Shown: piece by piece, positions 32,255-39,929 of the stretch
Numbering within the stretch: position 1 is the first letter of the stretch
How the letters are laid out: each line of letters opens with the position of its first letter
From: a virus
Taxonomy: Duplodnaviria > Caudoviricetes
Strand: one strand, 5' to 3'
Length of the DNA: 64,000 bases
IMG/VR virus record: IMGVR_UViG_3300032334_001433
Location: 32,001 to 96,000 of that record
The notes under the pieces: generated by a model
Told to the model about the DNA's origin: nothing
The model's input: only the letters and a program-made list of their open reading frames with translations
The model's database searches: none
Program-made: the position numbers and the translations under genes

Positions 32255-33025
32255 ATGGCGACTAAACGTTCAAACAATACGACAGCGGCGTATTCTGAAA
32301 ACTTATCAACAACTAAAGATCATAAACAAGGAACAAGAACAAATAATACTTTAAAATTGAGATTAGACGATCTCAAAACTTTTGCTCCGTTAACGGATAA
32401 TCAAAAGGATTTCTTTAATGCATATAAAAGAGGTGATTATTTTGTAGCATTGCACGGAGTTGCAGGTACAGGTAAAACATTTATTGCATTATATAAAGCA
32501 TTAGAAGAAGTACTAGATAAAAGTAATCCTTTTAATAAGATTATTATAGTACGTTCTGCAGTACAATCAAGAGAAATAGGCCATCTGCCTGGAGATGTTT
32601 CTGAAAAAATGGAAATCTACCAGCAACCATATCGTCAGATATGCGAAACATTTTTCGGCCGTAAAGACGCTTGGGATAGATTAGAAGAACAAGGTCACAT
32701 AGAATTCATTTCAACAAGTTTCATTAGAGGCATGAGTTTCGATGATGCAATCATCATTGTAGATGAAATGCAAAATATGAATTTTGAAGAGATTGATACT
32801 GTAATGACTCGCGTAGGATACCGATCTAAAATTATTTGGTGCGGTGATTATAGACAAACCGATTTAAGAAAAGCTGGCGATAAAACAGGAATTTTAAAGT
32901 TCTTCGATATTGCGGCAAAGATGCAAGCATTCACTCGTATAGAATTTACTGCAGATGACATTGTTCGTTCATCACTAGTAAAAGACTATATCTTAGCAAA
33001 ACTTGATTACGAGGACAATATATAA
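32255..33025 (+). CDS. phoH: PhoH-like protein
   Basis: GVAGTGKT, GHLPG, FIRGMSF, IIVDEMQN, GDYRQTDL. Confidence 0.95.
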   Translation: MATKRSNNTTAAYSENLSTTKDHKQGTRTNNTLKLRLDDLKTFAPLTDNQKDFFNAYKRGDYFVALHGVAGTGKTFIALYKALEEVLDKSNPFNKIIIVRSAVQSREIGHLPGDVSEKMEIYQQPYRQICETFFGRKDAWDRLEEQGHIEFISTSFIRGMSFDDAIIIVDEMQNMNFEEIDTVMTRVGYRSKIIWCGDYRQTDLRKAGDKTGILKFFDIAAKMQAFTRIEFTADDIVRSSLVKDYILAKLDYEDNI

Positions 33026-33070
33026 CGTATTAATTATGTCTCATGCGAATAACAATTATAAGGAGACAAA

Positions 33071-33709
33071 ATGGCTGACAGTTTTGATTTTAATTTTACA
33101 GAGGATCATCTAAGACATCTATTGCCAAAAGTTAAAAATATCTCAGAATGGTATACTGCAATTGTAGAAACACTTCCGCAGTATGATATTTACGACATAG
33201 GTAGAGTTGCGGCATTTATTGCCCAGTGTGCTCATGAATCGGGTGGGTTTACTCTTGTTCAAGAAAACTTGAACTATAGCGCAGATGGTTTGCAGAAAAT
33301 ATTTGGGAAGTATTTTCCAAATCACGAAATTGCTGCTCAATATGCAAGACAACCTGAAAAAATTGCTAATAGAGTGTATGCAAACAGAATGGGTAATGGA
33401 GATGAGGCAAGTGGCGATGGTTGGAAATATAGAGGACGTGGTCTAATTCAACTAACAGGAAAGTCTAATTATACAAAATGCTCAGAAGCATTCTTTGATG
33501 ATCATACTTTGTTAGACAATCCCGATATATTATTACAACCATACTATGCTTTAAATTCTGCATGCTGGTTCTGGAATGCAAATAATTTAAATGAATTAGC
33601 TGATACTCAAGATTTAAAAATGATGACTAAAAAAATTAATGGCGGTTTTATTGGTCTTGAAGATCGTATTGCCCATTACAATCATGCGGTGGACGTATTA
33701 CAAGGATAA
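33071..33709 (+). CDS. GH19 family endolysin
   Basis: FIAQCAHESGGF, ENLNYS, YRGRGLIQLTGKSNY, INGG. Confidence 0.93.
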   Translation: MADSFDFNFTEDHLRHLLPKVKNISEWYTAIVETLPQYDIYDIGRVAAFIAQCAHESGGFTLVQENLNYSADGLQKIFGKYFPNHEIAAQYARQPEKIANRVYANRMGNGDEASGDGWKYRGRGLIQLTGKSNYTKCSEAFFDDHTLLDNPDILLQPYYALNSACWFWNANNLNELADTQDLKMMTKKINGGFIGLEDRIAHYNHAVDVLQG

Positions 33710-34372
33710 TTGATGATATTTAATCATGTTAAGGTGAAAGAGTTTGAAAAATTAGAGCAAGTTACCTTACCAAATGGTACAAGGCATTACGTAACACCGA
33801 AGGGCAAAAAATATCCTTCGGTGACTACGGTTCTTGGTGCTCAAAGCAAACAAGGTATTCTCGAGTGGCGTAAAAAAGTCGGCGAAGAAGAAGCAAACCG
33901 GATTTCTCGTGCAGCTACAAGTCGAGGAACTAAATTGCATACGCACGTTGAAAATTATTTGAACAATGTAAATGCAATAGATTCAATGTCAATGTTTCAA
34001 AGAGAATTATTTGACAGTATTCTTAATGATTTACATAGAATTGATAATATTCATTTGCAGGAAGAAAGATTATACTCGGATCATTTGCGAATGGCGGGTA
34101 CAGTTGACTGTATTGGTGAGTTTGATGGCAAATTAGCAGTCATTGACTTCAAAACTGCAGGTCGACAAAAGGAAAAACAGTGGATTCATAGCTATTTTAT
34201 GCAATGCGCGGCATATGCAATCATGTATGAGGAAAGAACCGGCATTCCAATCAACAAATTGGTGGTATTGATAGCAGTAGAAGGGGATTCTCCTCAAGTT
34301 TTCATTGAAAAACGTGATAACTGGGTCGCAGAGCTGCTAAAATGTCGGGATTCTTACGAAAATGGACAATAA
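33710..34372 (+). CDS. PD-(D/E)XK exonuclease (Cas4-like phage exonuclease)
   Basis: YPSVTTVL, RGTKLH, GTVDC, IDFKT, YFMQCAAYA. Confidence 0.9.
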   Translation: MMIFNHVKVKEFEKLEQVTLPNGTRHYVTPKGKKYPSVTTVLGAQSKQGILEWRKKVGEEEANRISRAATSRGTKLHTHVENYLNNVNAIDSMSMFQRELFDSILNDLHRIDNIHLQEERLYSDHLRMAGTVDCIGEFDGKLAVIDFKTAGRQKEKQWIHSYFMQCAAYAIMYEERTGIPINKLVVLIAVEGDSPQVFIEKRDNWVAELLKCRDSYENGQ

Positions 34373-34376
34373 AAGC

Positions 34377-34414
34377 TTGACATTTTTCTAAATTTCTGTT
34401 ATAATATATAAAAT
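34377..34414 (+). promoter_or_regulatory. Overlapping sigma70 and T4-late promoters
   Basis: TTGACA-17-TATAAT (34377-34405) then TATAAATA (34407-34414). Confidence 0.8.
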
Positions 34415-34425
34415 AGGAGAAAAAA

Positions 34426-34722
34426 ATGAAAAAACTACTTTTTCTAGCAATTTTTGCATTCACAGTTTTGGCAAATGCTCAATGGCACCACAGACATTGG
34501 GAGCCAAGGACAGTTATTGTTGAACGCAGTGATTGGGTAGCACCACTAATTATCGGTGGTATTGCCGGCGCAGTAATTGCAAACCAAAATCAACCACAAC
34601 CTGTGGTTGTTCAACAGCAACCAGTAATTGTACAACAACCTCAAACCGTTTGTACTGACTGGAAAGAAATTCAAACACCTGATGGCAAAATTTATCGCGA
34701 AAGAAATTGCTATCAACGATAA
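34426..34722 (+). CDS. Small exported/membrane protein
   Basis: Signal peptide, second hydrophobic segment, Gln/Pro/Val-rich tail with 2 Cys. Confidence 0.75.
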   Translation: MKKLLFLAIFAFTVLANAQWHHRHWEPRTVIVERSDWVAPLIIGGIAGAVIANQNQPQPVVVQQQPVIVQQPQTVCTDWKEIQTPDGKIYRERNCYQR

Positions 34723-34819
34723 AATTATATACTTATGATCTCGGACACGGCTAGGCTGTGCAATTAGACAAGATCCCGCTTCTTAGTGGGTACGGGAGGG
34801 CAGATCTCCCTAAGTATAT

Positions 34820-35140
34820 TTTTATTGCTGTATGAAGCAAAGAGAAAAGTGTTCTGGACGCGGGTTCGACTCCCGCCAGGTCCACCATAAAGAGTATTGT
34901 TCGCACCAAATAATAGCGAAAAAAATAGTGGCGTAGTTCCGGACTATGGATCATTAGCAGTATTCTTTATAATGGGCCTGCCCTGGTTTCGACAGAGCAA
35001 AGAGTAACAGAGTGGACAGCACATCAGCAACGATGTAAAAAGAAGAAAAACCGTAAACGCAAACGACGAATTGTTCGCATTAGCAGCCTAAACACTGCTT
35101 AGGGTTTCGGTAGGTTTCCTCGTAACAGAATAACCTACCA
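34820..35140 (+). ncRNA. ssrA: Circularly permuted (two-piece) tmRNA, tag ANDELFALAA
   Basis: T-arm GCGGG-TTCGACT-CCCGC and CAGGTCC-ACCA end at 34887, before the 5' end GGGCCTG (34974); G3:U wobble; tag 35059-35091. Confidence 0.92.
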
Positions 35141-35165
35141 ATATGTTTAACAACAGGAGAAAATT

Positions 35166-35603
35166 TTGATTAAAAAACTTGTACTTGTAGCAGCACTCAT
35201 CGGTGCAGCAACTGTAGCACAATCTACAGAAGTTGGTATCAATGGTGGTACTAACATTAGCTCAAGCGAAAATGTTTGGGGCGTAACTATCGGTCGTAAG
35301 ATCGGTTTTGCGGATGTAACCGGTGGCTTTACTCGCAATATTTCATCAGACACATATAGTGTCGGTACTTACAAAACTCTTACAAAAATTGGTCCAGTAT
35401 CAGTTGCAGTAAAAGGAAGTGGTGCATTTGTTGATAACAAAGTTGATCCAGATGGATATGCAGTAATTGTCGGCGCAGGTGCTTCAGTGCCTTTGGCAAA
35501 TAAGCTATCCGCTACTGTAGACTATTCCTATCAAGCAGGCCAAGATGTTATCAAAGCACAAAATGGTAGCAGAATTACTGCAGGTGTAAAACTTAGTTTC
35601 TAA
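35166..35603 (+). CDS. Small outer-membrane beta-barrel protein
   Basis: TTG start with AGGAG, signal peptide, amphipathic strands, terminal Phe (GVKLSF). Confidence 0.75.
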   Translation: MIKKLVLVAALIGAATVAQSTEVGINGGTNISSSENVWGVTIGRKIGFADVTGGFTRNISSDTYSVGTYKTLTKIGPVSVAVKGSGAFVDNKVDPDGYAVIVGAGASVPLANKLSATVDYSYQAGQDVIKAQNGSRITAGVKLSF

Positions 35604-35671
35604 GTTATAGAGGTTTGGTAGGTTGACCAGCATAGCAAATAACCTACCAATATTAATTACATATACGAATA

Positions 35672-36202
35672 ATGAAAACTTATACAAAACCATTTCTATT
35701 ATTTCTATCCACACTATTATTGATAACAGTATTTGTTCAAGTAACAACAGAAAAATTAAATAATTTAAGAGAATCAAAGTTTAAGGATAGTGATATAACC
35801 GTCGCCGTAAGGGAACAACAATTAGATTGCCTGGCACATAATATTTACTATGAAGCAGCAACAGAACCATTTGAGGGCAAAGTTGCAGTTGCTCAAGTAA
35901 CACTTAATAGAGCAGCATCTAGCAAATTTCCAAATGATATTTGCAAGGTAGTATATCAACGCAATATTATTTACGATAAAGTAATTTGTCAATTTAGTTG
36001 GTACTGCGAGACTTCTGCAAAAGCAAAACCAATTTATGCCGCAGCATATAAAGAATCATACGAAGTCGCAAAGAAAGTTCTTTTAGAAGGATTTAGATTA
36101 AAGAGTCTAAATGATGCCATGTATTATCATGCCTCATACGTGTCTCCTAATTGGAATAAACAACAAATTGCAAAAATTGGCAACCATATCTTTTACAAAT
36201 AA
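35672..36202 (+). CDS. SleB-like cell wall hydrolase with N-terminal anchor
   Basis: CLAHNIYYEA..EPFEGKVAVAQV, CQFSW, YYHASYVSPNW, IGNHIFY. Confidence 0.92.
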   Translation: MKTYTKPFLLFLSTLLLITVFVQVTTEKLNNLRESKFKDSDITVAVREQQLDCLAHNIYYEAATEPFEGKVAVAQVTLNRAASSKFPNDICKVVYQRNIIYDKVICQFSWYCETSAKAKPIYAAAYKESYEVAKKVLLEGFRLKSLNDAMYYHASYVSPNWNKQQIAKIGNHIFYK

Positions 36203-36205
36203 ATT

Positions 36206-36514
36206 ATGATTAAATTACCTACACTACAAAATGTTATTGAATACTGCAAGACTACACTAACAGTTGCAACTGCAGAAACTATTGCTTGGATTGGTATTGT
36301 ACTAATTCATGCAGCAACAGTACCGACAATGATTTCATTAATGTCTGGTCTATCAGATAAGATGCCCCCTGTAGATTTTGTCCTATTTGTTTGGGCTGGA
36401 TTGTCTCTTCTATTTGCCCGAGCAGTAATTCTCAAAGATATGTTGACTATTGTTACTATCGGAGCAGGATTTATTGTACATTCTTGTTTTCTTGCCCTAA
36501 TACTATTTAAATAA
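36206..36514 (+). CDS. Three-TM membrane protein (possible holin)
   Basis: Three hydrophobic segments; adjacent to hydrolase. Confidence 0.5.
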   Translation: MIKLPTLQNVIEYCKTTLTVATAETIAWIGIVLIHAATVPTMISLMSGLSDKMPPVDFVLFVWAGLSLLFARAVILKDMLTIVTIGAGFIVHSCFLALILFK

Positions 36515-36515
36515 A

Positions 36516-37040
36516 ATGAGTCTAAAAGATCTAACCCATGCAAAACATAAAGAAGCAGAAACGCAACCGTTTATTAAAGCTATCTTTAAAAAATCAGTAA
36601 CAAGAGAAGAATACGCAGATTACTTATTTCAACTTGGTTTTATATACCATGTATTGGAAGAAGATGTCGGAAACAAATTTGGCTTATTTAACGATATGCC
36701 GGAATTGAAACGATCATCGTATATTAGAGATGACATTAATGAGCTTACCACTCCTACAACTTTATATTCGCCTAAAAAATCTACAGTAGATTATGTAAAT
36801 TATTTACTTGGTATAGACAATGCACAAGATGCAATGGCCCATGTATATGTTCGTCATATGGGAGATTTATTTGGTGGCCAGGCTCTTGCAAAACTTGTGC
36901 CTGGTTCTGGAAAAATGTACAAGTTTGAGAATAAAGAAGAATTAATTAGTAAAGTTAGATCTAAACTAGTTATTGAAATGGCAGACGAAGCAAACATTGC
37001 ATTTGACCACAATATTAATATGGTTAAGGAATATAATTAA
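36516..37040 (+). CDS. ho1: Heme oxygenase
   Basis: LKDLT..KHKEAE proximal His, YVRHMGDLFGGQ distal helix. Confidence 0.92.
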   Translation: MSLKDLTHAKHKEAETQPFIKAIFKKSVTREEYADYLFQLGFIYHVLEEDVGNKFGLFNDMPELKRSSYIRDDINELTTPTTLYSPKKSTVDYVNYLLGIDNAQDAMAHVYVRHMGDLFGGQALAKLVPGSGKMYKFENKEELISKVRSKLVIEMADEANIAFDHNINMVKEYN

Positions 37041-37714
37041 TGTCTATGGTGTGGGATAAGATGATTCCATTATCGGAATCAATTATTGATAGATTCAAAG
37101 AGTGTGATATTTTACCAATAGATAGTAAATATGAACATTCCGATATTGATTTCACTTGGAAAAATTATCTATTCAAATCTAATAAATTTCGTCGAGCACA
37201 TATCGAAATTGTAGATGCCAGAGAATCTAAAAAGATGTGGGTTATGCACATGACAATATTTCCACATCTAAATGATCCTGCACCAATATTTGGTTTTGAT
37301 GTAGTTTGTGGCGCAAATAAGATTACTGGTGCATTCCATGATTTTTCTAAATCTGGCGACAGTGAAATTTATAATTGGTATCAAGATAAAATGTCTTCTA
37401 TAAATTGGAGCAAACCAAGAGAATTGCCAGATTGGGCAAAACGTATTTTTAGTCCAATGATGCTTGCGGCAGGAAATGTTAGTACAGAAGAAGAATTGGA
37501 CAAATTAATTGCTGTTGCTATAGACAATCTAGACTATTACCTTTATAATGTAGGAAATGAAAGCGAAGATAATAGTTATGTTGAGGCATATAACAACTAT
37601 TGTAGCAATCAAAAGTTAAATCATCACACACTAGCAATGATGGTTAATTTAGGTGTAGACGAGACCAATTTTAAAAACTTTATGGATGAAATTTTATTTC
37701 CAGAAATTAAATGA
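37040..37714 (+). CDS. Ferredoxin-dependent bilin reductase (PcyA/PcyX-like)
   Basis: FRRAHIE, VMHMTIFP...PIFGFD, AFHDFS, RELPDWAKRIFS, YCSNQKLN; follows heme oxygenase. Confidence 0.88.
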   Translation: MSMVWDKMIPLSESIIDRFKECDILPIDSKYEHSDIDFTWKNYLFKSNKFRRAHIEIVDARESKKMWVMHMTIFPHLNDPAPIFGFDVVCGANKITGAFHDFSKSGDSEIYNWYQDKMSSINWSKPRELPDWAKRIFSPMMLAAGNVSTEEELDKLIAVAIDNLDYYLYNVGNESEDNSYVEAYNNYCSNQKLNHHTLAMMVNLGVDETNFKNFMDEILFPEIK

Positions 37715-37971
37715 ACGAACAAGAAATTTTAACCGATAGTTTAATTATTACAAAAAGATTTAGATCTCCAAACGAGTTTTCTTTGTATATCGAAGAACTT
37801 GTTGCAAAGGAACATATTAGTTATATGGATGCAGTAATTCAGTATTGTAATGAAATTGATATTGATGTTGAATCTGTAGCCAACCTAATTAATAAGTCTT
37901 TAAAAGATAAAATTCAGTATGAAGCCGAAGAACAAAACTATATGAAACCAAGGGGCAAACTGCCACTATGA
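37711..37971 (+). CDS. 33: Late transcription co-activator gp33
   Basis: SYMDAVIQYC...I.KSLKDKIQYEAEEQNY. Confidence 0.88.
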   Translation: MNEQEILTDSLIITKRFRSPNEFSLYIEELVAKEHISYMDAVIQYCNEIDIDVESVANLINKSLKDKIQYEAEEQNYMKPRGKLPL

Positions 37972-38579
37972 CAATGGATGAATTTTCAGTTTATAAAATG
38001 TATATTGCATTGAAGTTACATTTTACAACAGACAAATATGATGTAGTTAAACAACGGGGTAAGGTCAAAGCAAGCCGACAAGCTTTCGCAAAAAGAACTG
38101 ATCTTTTCTCTATTAGAAAAATTTCCAAAACTTATTCCGACGAAGAAGTTGCTAATTTTTTAGTCGCAAATTTTGTTTCTGGCGATCGCTGGGGAGGGAT
38201 GTTTGATATTGATGCAGGCGAAAGATATCAACTTTGGAAAAAGAAAATTGAAAGTTTATCTTATAATTTTTCTCAAGACTTAGATGCACTTATTGCAGAA
38301 ATGAAAGATAAAAATTTAAGTTTATCGGAAATCTTTAATGTGCAATCGGGACAACACCCATATATAATTAAAGCGTTTTTAAGAAAAACAATTAGCATTG
38401 AGACCTTGGTTATATTGGAAAAGCTTAACAAGTACGTGGAAGTTTTTGATAAAGAAATAACTGACACTATAGTTTGGCCCGATATATCTAGATTGATTAA
38501 AAAGTATAAACCATTTTTATCTATAGATACGGAAAAATTTAATGGAATCTTTAGACAACGAATTAGAAACGCAGGGTAG
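37968..38579 (+). CDS. 59: Helicase loader gp59
   Basis: YKMYIALKLHFTTDKYD, FLVANF, HPYII...ISIETLVIL. Confidence 0.9.
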   Translation: MTMDEFSVYKMYIALKLHFTTDKYDVVKQRGKVKASRQAFAKRTDLFSIRKISKTYSDEEVANFLVANFVSGDRWGGMFDIDAGERYQLWKKKIESLSYNFSQDLDALIAEMKDKNLSLSEIFNVQSGQHPYIIKAFLRKTISIETLVILEKLNKYVEVFDKEITDTIVWPDISRLIKKYKPFLSIDTEKFNGIFRQRIRNAG

Positions 38580-38966
38580 GTTTAAAAAACTAGAGGAAGA
38601 TCTTGTTAGAATGCAAGAACTACTAGCTTACCAACAAGAAGCGATAAAGGATACGCAACGATATTTAATTAAAGTTGCGCACGGTCAACAGGAACTTAGC
38701 AAGCGTTTGCTTGCTTGGCCGTATATCAAAGTTCCGACAAAAAAGACGAAAGATGTTTAATATTTTTATTTTGCAAAATGGACAATTACAGGAAAAAAGA
38801 TAATTACGAGCGTGAAAAGAAGATTCGCCGGGTAGAAAAGGGCAGTCACAAACTTGACAAGCATCGAAAGATTATATATAATATGACACCATCGAGTAAA
38901 GACGATGATGTATTTGATGAATATCTAGATTATGCATACGAAAATCAAAAAATTAAACGACGTTAA
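38542..38966 (+). CDS. Two small hypothetical proteins (38542-38760, 38778-38966)
   Basis: Located between 59 and 32 as in many T4-like phages. Confidence 0.65.
38854..38882 (+). promoter_or_regulatory. sigma70-type promoter for gene 32
   Basis: TTGACA-17-TATAAT inside the upstream ORF. Confidence 0.75.
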
Positions 38967-39005
38967 TACTACGCACATACTACGCCAATACGAAAGGAAA
39001 TTATC

Positions 39006-39929
39006 ATGGCATTCACATCACTAGCAGATCTACGCAAATCTCGCGGCGGCTTCGATTCTTTAATGAAAGAAGTTGAAAAGATTGCAAATCCCCAATCAGA
39101 ATCTAACAGCAAAAACGACGACCGCTACTGGCAACCAGAAGTTGACAAAGCAGGTAATGGTTATGCTGTTATCCGATTCTTAGCGCCACCAAAAGGCGAA
39201 GAACTTCCATGGGTTCGCATTTGGAATCATGGTTTTCAGGGACCTACTGGAAAATGGTATATTGAGAATTCTTTAACAACTCTTGGTAAACAAGATCCTG
39301 TTTCAGAACTTAATACTGAACTATGGAATTCCGGTTCAGAAGCAAATAAAGAAGTTGCTCGAAAACAAAAACGTAAACTAACTTATATCACAAACATTCT
39401 TGTTGTTCAGGATACTAAACATCCAGAGAATGAGGGTAAAGTATTCTTGTATAAGTTTGGTAAGAAAATCTTTGATAAGATTAAAGACGTTGCAGAGCCA
39501 CAATTTGAGGACGAAAAACCACTTAACCCGTTTGATTTCTGGGAAGGTGCAAACTTCAAGTTGAAGATTCGCAATGTAGAAGGATATCGCAATTATGACA
39601 AATCAGAATTCGATACTCCAAGTCCAGTTTCTAATGATGATTCCATCATCGAGGCAATTTGGTCCAAACAACATTCATTGACAGCGTTCTTGGAACCTAA
39701 GAACTTTAAATCATATGATGAGTTGAAAAAGAAACTTACTATGGTTCTTTCTAATGGTGCACCTCCGGTTAAACCTGCAGAAAGTGTTGATTTAGATGAA
39801 GACGCATCATTCACACGACCAGCAGCTCAAGTTACTCGGACACCAGCACCTACTCCTAAACAGGATGTAAATTTTGACGATGACGACGAGTCTTTGTCAT
39901 ATTTCTCAAAGTTGGCGAGTGACGACTAA
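39006..39929 (+). CDS. 32: ssDNA-binding protein gp32
   Basis: GNGYAVIRFL, HGFQGPTGKWYIENSLTT, PFDFWEGANFKLKIR, acidic tail. Confidence 0.97.
   Translation: MAFTSLADLRKSRGGFDSLMKEVEKIANPQSESNSKNDDRYWQPEVDKAGNGYAVIRFLAPPKGEELPWVRIWNHGFQGPTGKWYIENSLTTLGKQDPVSELNTELWNSGSEANKEVARKQKRKLTYITNILVVQDTKHPENEGKVFLYKFGKKIFDKIKDVAEPQFEDEKPLNPFDFWEGANFKLKIRNVEGYRNYDKSEFDTPSPVSNDDSIIEAIWSKQHSLTAFLEPKNFKSYDELKKKLTMVLSNGAPPVKPAESVDLDEDASFTRPAAQVTRTPAPTPKQDVNFDDDDESLSYFSKLASDD

Follow-up and report, generated by a model that had tools for sequence, protein, structure and literature searches.

A circularly permuted, two-piece tmRNA gene of the betaproteobacterial type in a T4-like jumbo lake phage

A complete T4-like lake phage encodes a circularly permuted, two-piece tmRNA (ssrA) gene of the betaproteobacterial (beta) subtype, and we consider it very likely, judging from the sequences of this gene and its viral relatives, that the gene is functional and performs ordinary trans-translation with the help of host factors. 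The gene lies in the 64,000-nt window analysed here, which corresponds to bases 32001-96000 of the record; the full virus genome measures 202,665 bp, bears direct terminal repeats and is estimated to be 100% complete. The label of this record as a phage is correct: the genome of this jumbo phage (~203 kb) is complete and repeat-bounded, and it encodes the T4-type genes gp5, gp6, gp8 and gp32 together with ribonucleotide reductase, ligase and PhoH. Among cultured phages, its gp32 is closest to those of Pelagibacter phage HTVC008M (58%) and Methylophilales phage Melnitz (56%), followed by those of Synechococcus myophages.

Identity and anatomy of the gene

ARAGORN called a "Permuted" tmRNA at 34795-35182 with the tag ANDELFALAA (all coordinates are those of the window; the tmRNA parts, the promoter and the inserted ORF described below are on the + strand). 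In Rfam searches, the model RF04321 (tmRNA_permuted) matched over its full length (model positions 1-213) with 129.5 bits (E 5e-25, cut-off 47), as did RF01850 (beta_tmRNA; 118.8 bits, E 1.5e-35, cut-off 84, full length), whereas the sister models, scored separately, all fell under their cut-offs (alpha 38.9 against 50, cyano 40.8 against 70 and standard 34.2 against 47). The permuted, two-piece gene order put forward in a preliminary description of the sequence is thus borne out by both ARAGORN and RF04321, and of the alpha, beta and cyano models that it had proposed as a check, only beta scores above its cut-off. A minimum-free-energy fold of 34826-35140 recovered the whole architecture (z = -3.6), and none of 100 shuffled sequences folded as well. 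The tmRNA identification is far beyond chance, and the observation is confirmed in all its details.

The acceptor piece, representing the 3′ tRNA-like half, occupies 34826-34887 (ARAGORN, Rfam) and precedes the coding piece, which extends from 34974 to a nominal 3′ end at 35140 (Rfam, single-sequence fold and pair counts). Within the acceptor piece, a T-arm with a TTCGAnT loop (34860-34876; ARAGORN, Rfam and an alignment of 83 viral copies) is followed by the acceptor 3′ strand CAGGTCC (34877-34883) and by ACCA (34884-34887), so that the discriminator A and the CCA are both encoded. The 5′ strand GGGCCTG (34974-34980) forms seven pairs with CAGGTCC, including G3:U (34976:34881); this full pairing, with the 3′ half ending at 34887 ahead of the 5′ half, is seen in the sequence just as had been claimed. 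The D-loop analogue extends up to 34993. Two further helices connect the pieces, namely P2a (TGTTCT 34850-34855 with AGAGCA 34994-34999) and an outer helix (TGCTGT 34826-34831 with ACAGCA 35016-35021), both assigned from the sequence and from pair counts; they correspond to the cross-piece helices of the preliminary description and covary across the 83 copies. Between the two pieces lies an intervening segment (IVS) of 86 nt (34888-34973), again as initially claimed, which is presumably excised. It is closed by a stem of 12 pairs, two of them G:U (34888-34899 with 34958-34969), and ends in a 4-nt leader, TAAT (34970-34973), opposite ACCA.

In the coding piece, the outer helix strand is followed by a hairpin (35022-35035) and by the tag frame at 35059-35091 (ARAGORN, gene positions 265-297), which consists of the resume codon GCA, the tag ANDELFALAA and the stop codon TAA, in agreement with the tag (A)ANDELFALAA* read earlier. 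ARAGORN reports a resume consensus upstream of this frame, and the tag stop is located within the loop of a further hairpin (35082-35086 with 35095-35099). The 3′ element (35102-35139) matches the consensus hairpin of beta_tmRNA and comprises a hairpin (35109-35116 with 35132-35139) bearing the conserved loop CCTCGTAACAGAA, and a pseudoknot stem of 3 bp (35102-35104 with 35118-35120) indicated by covariation and RNAalifold. Aligned to beta_tmRNA, the phage copy shows the model's tRNA domain, P2a, outer helix and 3′ hairpin, but has non-standard pairs at the middle helix and a deletion in place of the terminal 9-bp hairpin. A classical pseudoknot 1 was considered and rejected, as its position holds only the hairpin 35022-35035 and the alignment there is ragged (65% paired).

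Conservation among viral relatives and proposed function

The exonuclease gene upstream of the tmRNA has 397 relatives in IMG/VR. Among the best 80 of these 397 loci, a permuted tmRNA directly follows the homologous exonuclease in at least 67, at a median distance of 55 nt, and at least three of the remaining 13 also bear a tmRNA, either truncated where the contig stops or overlooked by ARAGORN. Exonuclease identity among the syntenic loci drops to ~55%, and at least 120 viral contigs match the tmRNA signature pattern. Covariation was evaluated in the alignment of 83 viral copies, all of which have 10-residue tags. Standard pairs account for 100% of cells in the acceptor stem (both-side changes at three of seven pairs, G3:U in 83 of 83 copies) and in the T-arm (three of five pairs), for 99.8% in P2a (five of six), for 97.8% in the outer helix (five of six) and for 92% in the IVS-closing stem (12 of 12). 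All five helices are well above shuffled and slid controls, the same helices are recovered by RNAalifold, and ACCA is unchanged in every one of the 83 copies. The 3′ hairpin has both-side changes at eight of eight pairs and keeps its loop, and the 3-bp pseudoknot stem, which RNAalifold picks independently, is paired in 96% of cells, with a change from G-C to A-U in eight sequences. We also considered whether CAGAA in the conserved 3′ loop might pair with TTCTG in the acceptor piece, and rejected this, since TTCTG variants leave the loop unchanged and the two do not covary. The gene is under purifying selection and is conserved across the clade; the mature sequence of the window copy is 83-93% identical to the closest phage copies.

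These observations bear on the possibility that the gene is a non-functional passenger, whether a captured host ssrA, an attachment-site remnant carried without selection or an assembly chimera. ssrA is a common integration site of which fragments occur in phages (PMC9004378, PMC4383910), and the G+C content of the gene (44%) differs from that of the genome (36.6%). However, the gene is complete, lies inside a complete, repeat-bounded genome, and is syntenic in dozens of contigs that carry compensatory substitutions. Moreover, even the best bacterial copy from the scan described below shares only ~70% identity with it, and the 145 unique viral copies fall in one clade. Covariation and synteny have already largely refuted a passenger, which we regard as extremely unlikely.

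Among the 145 unique viral copies, 143 tags begin with AN, AK, AT or VN and 140 end with AA; the middle of the tag varies and the frame is kept. This conservation argues against the RNA acting as an SmpB decoy or modulator, which would bind host SmpB and ribosomes mainly to disturb or adjust the host's trans-translation instead of rescuing ribosomes for the phage; this has been proposed for the RNA of mycobacteriophage DS6A, which consists of a tRNA-like domain (TLD) only. Such a role would be compatible with the lack of an SmpB of the phage's own, with the reduced pseudoknot content of the window copy and with a report that a TLD-only phage molecule inhibits tmRNA (PMC4131195, PMC11915505). 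However, a decoy would not need a resume codon, a complete tag frame and a stop codon placed in the loop of a hairpin, which are kept in 143 of the 145 copies, with conserved AND...ALAA ends. We therefore consider a decoy highly improbable. As a separate observation on the tags, a subgroup of relatives (including L103, L126, L130, L133, L137, L140, L141, L152, L153, L173, L179 and L181) encodes tags of 27-32 residues, roughly triple the usual size, with the conserved core ANADTFDFSAMSFTGNTV...ALAA.

Ordinary trans-translation would depend on factors from outside the phage. Searches of the phage genome for SmpB and AlaRS genes and for RNase P RNA found none of them, which indicates reliance on the host; the preliminary description had proposed a phage-encoded permuted tmRNA gene that depends on host factors and had noted that smpB is missing from the window; this core reading is supported, smpB being absent from the whole phage. 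Based on the anatomy of the gene, we infer processing, charging, use of SmpB and a benefit to the phage as follows. Early transcription would start at a sigma-70-type promoter at 34377-34405 and run through an inserted small ORF. Host RNase P would cut before G34974 and host 3′ processing would expose the encoded CCA at 34887, the two cuts releasing the 86-nt segment and leaving an acceptor piece of ~62 nt and a coding piece of ~165 nt, held together by the acceptor stem and the two cross-piece helices. Host AlaRS could then charge the RNA with alanine via G3:U and the discriminator A, and host SmpB, the compatibility of which is assumed, would bring it to stalled ribosomes, where translation would resume at GCA. 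The appended AANDELFALAA would represent a ClpXP-type degradation tag. The phage would likely benefit by keeping ribosomes free when host mRNA decay or RNA-cleaving defences yield non-stop messages.

Intervening segment, promoter and gene neighbourhood

The interior of the IVS is poorly conserved among viral relatives (median identity 0.48, versus 0.75 for the mature core), and its length ranges from 28 to 200 nt. The IVS interior of the window is 95% identical to that of the relative L093, whereas the mature parts of the two are only 81% identical, which suggests that the IVS may be exchanged as a module between tmRNA genes. An unconstrained, module-like interior of variable length is what one would expect of a segment that is cut out and absent from the mature RNA. 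Across the viral set, 55 pairs of copies have an IVS that is 85-98% identical but mature parts that are only 61-81% identical, with differing acceptor stems (e.g. L020/L032/L041/L104 and L049/L196).

A protein gene within the IVS of the window was rejected. Its lone ORF has a TTG start, has no properly spaced ribosome-binding site and enters the tRNA-like domain, and the differences between this ORF and L093 are explained by stem covariation. In some relatives (L097, L114, L123, L179, L157, L197, L103, L141 and L126; also L030 and L038), the IVS holds AAGGAG, an ATG and a strongly hydrophobic ORF of 22-24 codons (e.g. MNDNLNSLAIGVVIVLIVFALVLL), which stops at the TGA of a conserved TGAT just before G1 and has its ribosome-binding site within the closing stem. 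Relatives with an IVS of 150-200 nt have ORFs of 57-62 codons in it. Public freshwater metatranscriptomes were considered as evidence of expression and processing and rejected, as three runs share only conserved parts of the tmRNA with the window and their contigs diverge beyond these. In one contig the two flanks of the IVS seem to be joined, but undetermined bases lie between them, and the contigs in question are those of relatives or of bacterial tmRNAs.

The promoter at 34377-34405 agrees with the consensus at 12 of 12 positions (TTGACA, a 17-nt spacer and TATAAT), has a TG ahead of the second hexamer and is probably that of the tmRNA transcription unit. It is homologous to the promoter that abuts the tmRNA in L016 and L019, where it runs straight into TTGCTGT, and most relatives have a consensus sigma-70-type promoter ending ~7-10 nt ahead of the outer helix. 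In the window, a cassette of ~420 bp (34406-34825) sits exactly between this ancestral promoter and the first tmRNA base; according to the alignment, it is present in the window and in L012 and absent from L016, L019 and L033. The cassette comprises a ribosome-binding site, a 98-codon ORF outside the tmRNA (34426-34722), the product of which is hydrophobic at its N-terminus and rich in Q, P and V in its middle, and a ~100-nt tail to 34825 with two hairpins. Searches of Pfam and PHROG with the 98-codon ORF gave no match. A promoter immediately 5′ of the acceptor piece was rejected for the window, as the sequence there offers a weak TATATT and no -35 element and the promoter scan calls none. With the cassette between promoter and tmRNA, the 5′ end of the acceptor piece would derive from processing or from an unrecognised start.

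On the 3′ side, a scan for an intrinsic terminator found none between the tmRNA and the ORF that comes next (35166-35603). This ORF has a TTG start behind an AGGAG ribosome-binding site, a signal-peptide-like N-terminus and a weak match to the YfaZ outer-membrane beta-barrel (23.6 bits, cut-off 23). Two distinct genes for cell-wall hydrolases, one GH19 endolysin-like and one of the Hydrolase_2 (SleB-like) type, bracket the exonuclease-tmRNA region (33071-33709 and 35672-36202). A ferredoxin-dependent bilin reductase gene is found at 37040-37714 (PF05996, 76.7 bits); psbA was looked for in the phage and is absent, so the phage is not a typical cyanophage, the bilin reductase notwithstanding. 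The genome encodes 26 tRNA genes, the tRNA array being located ~84 kb away from the tmRNA, and the combination of a tmRNA with 26 tRNAs is a further example of how large phages bolster translation in their hosts.

This context is relevant to suggestions that phage tmRNAs act in selective tagging, by directing host proteins to proteolysis for amino-acid recycling, or sense stalled ribosomes to time lysis (PMC9004378, PMC7162821). The early, sigma-70 type of the promoter, the position of the gene between two cell-wall hydrolase genes and the wide variation of tags among relatives, including the forms of 27-32 aa, would all be in keeping with such functions. However, we know of no means by which tmRNA chooses targets beyond stalled ribosomes, no sensor output is indicated in the sequence, and both ideas overlap mechanistically with ordinary trans-translation; we judge either to have a very small chance of being correct. 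Ordinary trans-translation is preferred over a passenger, a decoy and a selective tagging or sensing role because the tag frame is conserved, the helices covary and the locus is syntenic.

Subtype, known relatives and bacterial copies

Phage tmRNAs have been catalogued since those of the Bxz1-group mycobacteriophages and phage G (PMC4131195), a 2025 tmRNA database lists 79 unique phage sequences (PMC11915505), and huge phages carry tmRNA and sometimes SmpB too (PMC7162821). A two-piece tmRNA was reported for Melnitz by Buchholz et al. 2022, according to whose count 53 of 133 unique phage tmRNA structures are permuted, 50 of these from aquatic phages (PMC9004378). The novelty implied by the preliminary description was therefore overstated, since phage two-piece tmRNAs are already in print (PMC9004378), and the gene is a well-supported but ordinary further example. 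Its value is mainly one of annotation, as the complete genome of a jumbo phage gains a genuine structured RNA gene that had been left unannotated and the anatomy of which is now defined. It resembles the one-piece tmRNAs of the Bxz1 group and Bacillus phage G, as well as the TLD-only RNA of DS6A (PMC4131195), in being a phage-carried ssrA homologue that is presumably dependent on host SmpB, but differs in that it is permuted and has a full tag frame, whereas those either have the standard gene order or are devoid of a tag frame.

Melnitz and the Pelagibacter phages Mosig and HTVC008M belong to the same aquatic T4-like group as the window phage (gp32 56-58%, exonuclease 40% and PhoH 49% identical), and all three have permuted tmRNAs (RF04321, 91-113 bits). 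In Melnitz, the gene occupies the same slot, with PhoH, a PDDEXK nuclease, the tmRNA, and gp32 a few kb downstream (window 32255-39929 compared with MZ577097.1 44000-48800, L332). However, the tmRNAs of these three phages are of the alpha subtype (alpha_tmRNA, 67.6-106.7 bits), whereas that of the window phage is beta, and their tags (ANDNYVPVDYALAA, GEDNFALAA and ANFNEYALAA) differ from that of the window. Melnitz also has a glutamine riboswitch just 3′ of the gene, whereas an Rfam search of the window finds none. An early promoter directly precedes the tmRNA of Melnitz (PMC9004378). The retention of the slot despite the difference in subtype indicates that the cargo was apparently either replaced within the slot or gained there on two separate occasions. 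That marine and freshwater relatives have the tmRNA slot in common and differ in subtype is of possible interest to tmRNA and phage specialists.

The beta subtype is shared with cultured phages of other families and hosts. Stenotrophomonas phage Marzo (Menderavirus) and Alcaligenes phage vB_Af_QDWS595 carry beta-type tmRNAs (RF01850, 94.6 and 93.8 bits), and permuted, phage-borne tmRNAs are found in Marzo and other Menderavirus, vB_Af_QDWS595, vB_Sm_QDWS359 and Xanthomonas phage BUDD (RF04321, 77.5-119 bits across the four). Marzo, like the window phage, is without SmpB. However, in Marzo and QDWS595 the gene lies amid tRNA genes, whereas that of the window is ~84 kb from the tRNA array, and Marzo, QDWS595, QDWS359 and BUDD all fall outside the freshwater clade in the tree and have other tags (e.g. 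VAANDDSYTVRIAA and ANDNVYAAAA). In the GenBank records of BUDD (L323), QDWS359 (L324) and QDWS595 (L325), the permuted tmRNA (RF04321, 77-111 bits) is unannotated, and in those of BUDD and QDWS359 its place is covered by a CDS labelled "hypothetical protein".

As cited in PMC9004378, the betaproteobacterial two-piece lineage was defined by Sharkady and Williams 2004. The bacterial tmRNAs matching RF01850 (Azonexus/Dechloromonas, Thauera and Accumulibacter) share with the window's gene the order of parts, the ANDExFAxAA tag, the 3′ hairpin with its conserved loop and the small pseudoknot. They differ in sequence (~70% identity), in IVS length (24-43 nt, versus 86 nt here) and in the middle helix, which is unformed here; furthermore, the permuted gene is the sole ssrA in Azonexus, versus an accessory viral copy here, and the phage copies form a separate clade. 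The preliminary description had suggested that the permutation might be an independent event. This does not hold, given the full-length match to the beta model including the 3′ hairpin with its conserved loop, the ANDExFAxAA style of the tag and the failure of the alpha and cyano models: permutation is common to the beta lineage, and therefore not an independent event here. The suggestion that permutation could mark the host also fared poorly, as Stenotrophomonas phages carry the beta type though a Stenotrophomonas genome has a standard one-piece ssrA, and Melnitz has the alpha type in a non-alphaproteobacterial host (PMC9004378). The tmRNA subtype is thus a poor host marker, which does not reliably report the form of the host's own ssrA.

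To place the phage copies, we compared them with bacterial ones from a scan of one genome per prokaryote species for an IVS of 15-45 nt, in which 110 signature stretches gave 107 permuted calls by ARAGORN and 97 unique mature sequences. These derive mostly from Rhodocyclaceae and Gallionellaceae and have tags of the form ANDE[QRNK]FA[ILVM]AA and an IVS of 24-43 nt. Among these species representatives (IVS 15-45 nt), the host look-up gave a best bacterial tmRNA only ~70% identical to the window's mature sequence and none closer. When 242-246 unique sequences were placed in trees, the 145 viral copies all grouped in a single clade (support 0.92-0.98); these trees are short and unrooted, and the IVS window used for ascertainment differed between the viral and the bacterial set. 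The phage clade stands beside the bacterial copies in a tree with no reliable root and a sampling filtered by IVS length. Judging from these comparisons, the phage copy is an old one and no recent capture, and the beta-type two-piece tmRNA is both widespread and old in freshwater T4-like phages. Like the shared slot, this spread of the beta type and its unreliability as a host marker may be of interest to specialists; all three points leave knowledge of how tmRNA works unchanged.

Bacterial genomes differ in how they hold the permuted gene. It is the only ssrA in the Azonexus genome, whereas Cupriavidus, Herbaspirillum and a Gallionellaceae genome have both standard and permuted ssrA, and in a Stenotrophomonas genome the standard ssrA is accompanied by an additional permuted one. 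It is conceivable, although in our view rather unlikely, that the "betaproteobacterial" two-piece tmRNA is at root phage-borne and that the sole-copy gene of Rhodocyclaceae came from a phage copy replacing the standard gene. This reading draws on the vertical inheritance of the gene in a fixed slot of a large freshwater T4-like clade, where marine relatives have the alpha subtype, on the copies in unrelated cultured phages and as a second ssrA in bacteria that keep the standard one, and on the placement of the Rhodocyclaceae sole-copy gene among phage and second copies in the tree. If true, a phage would have given a bacterial family its ribosome-rescue RNA. The idea that the bacterial second copies are mobile by context was rejected, as the Gallionellaceae pair is without an integrase and chromosomal genes lie ahead of the copy in Stenotrophomonas.

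Several features of the second copies may be added. In Gallionellaceae (L230:1-718 and L274:2236-3137), a standard one-piece tmRNA has a permuted tmRNA of the beta type (165 bits, tag ANDENFAMAA) ~280 nt downstream in the same orientation, and the next genes are of a housekeeping nature (T2SS ATPase, aldose epimerase and EarP), with no integrase. The genomes of L243 (Stenotrophomonas), L240 (Cupriavidus) and L271 (Herbaspirillum) have a standard tmRNA of 191-217 bits together with one or two permuted beta-type copies. Some of the extra bacterial permuted copies have unusual tags (ANNDDYHQVLKAA and ANDSQFLAYGT), and the Stenotrophomonas bacterial copies group in the tree with the tmRNA of the Stenotrophomonas siphophage QDWS359.
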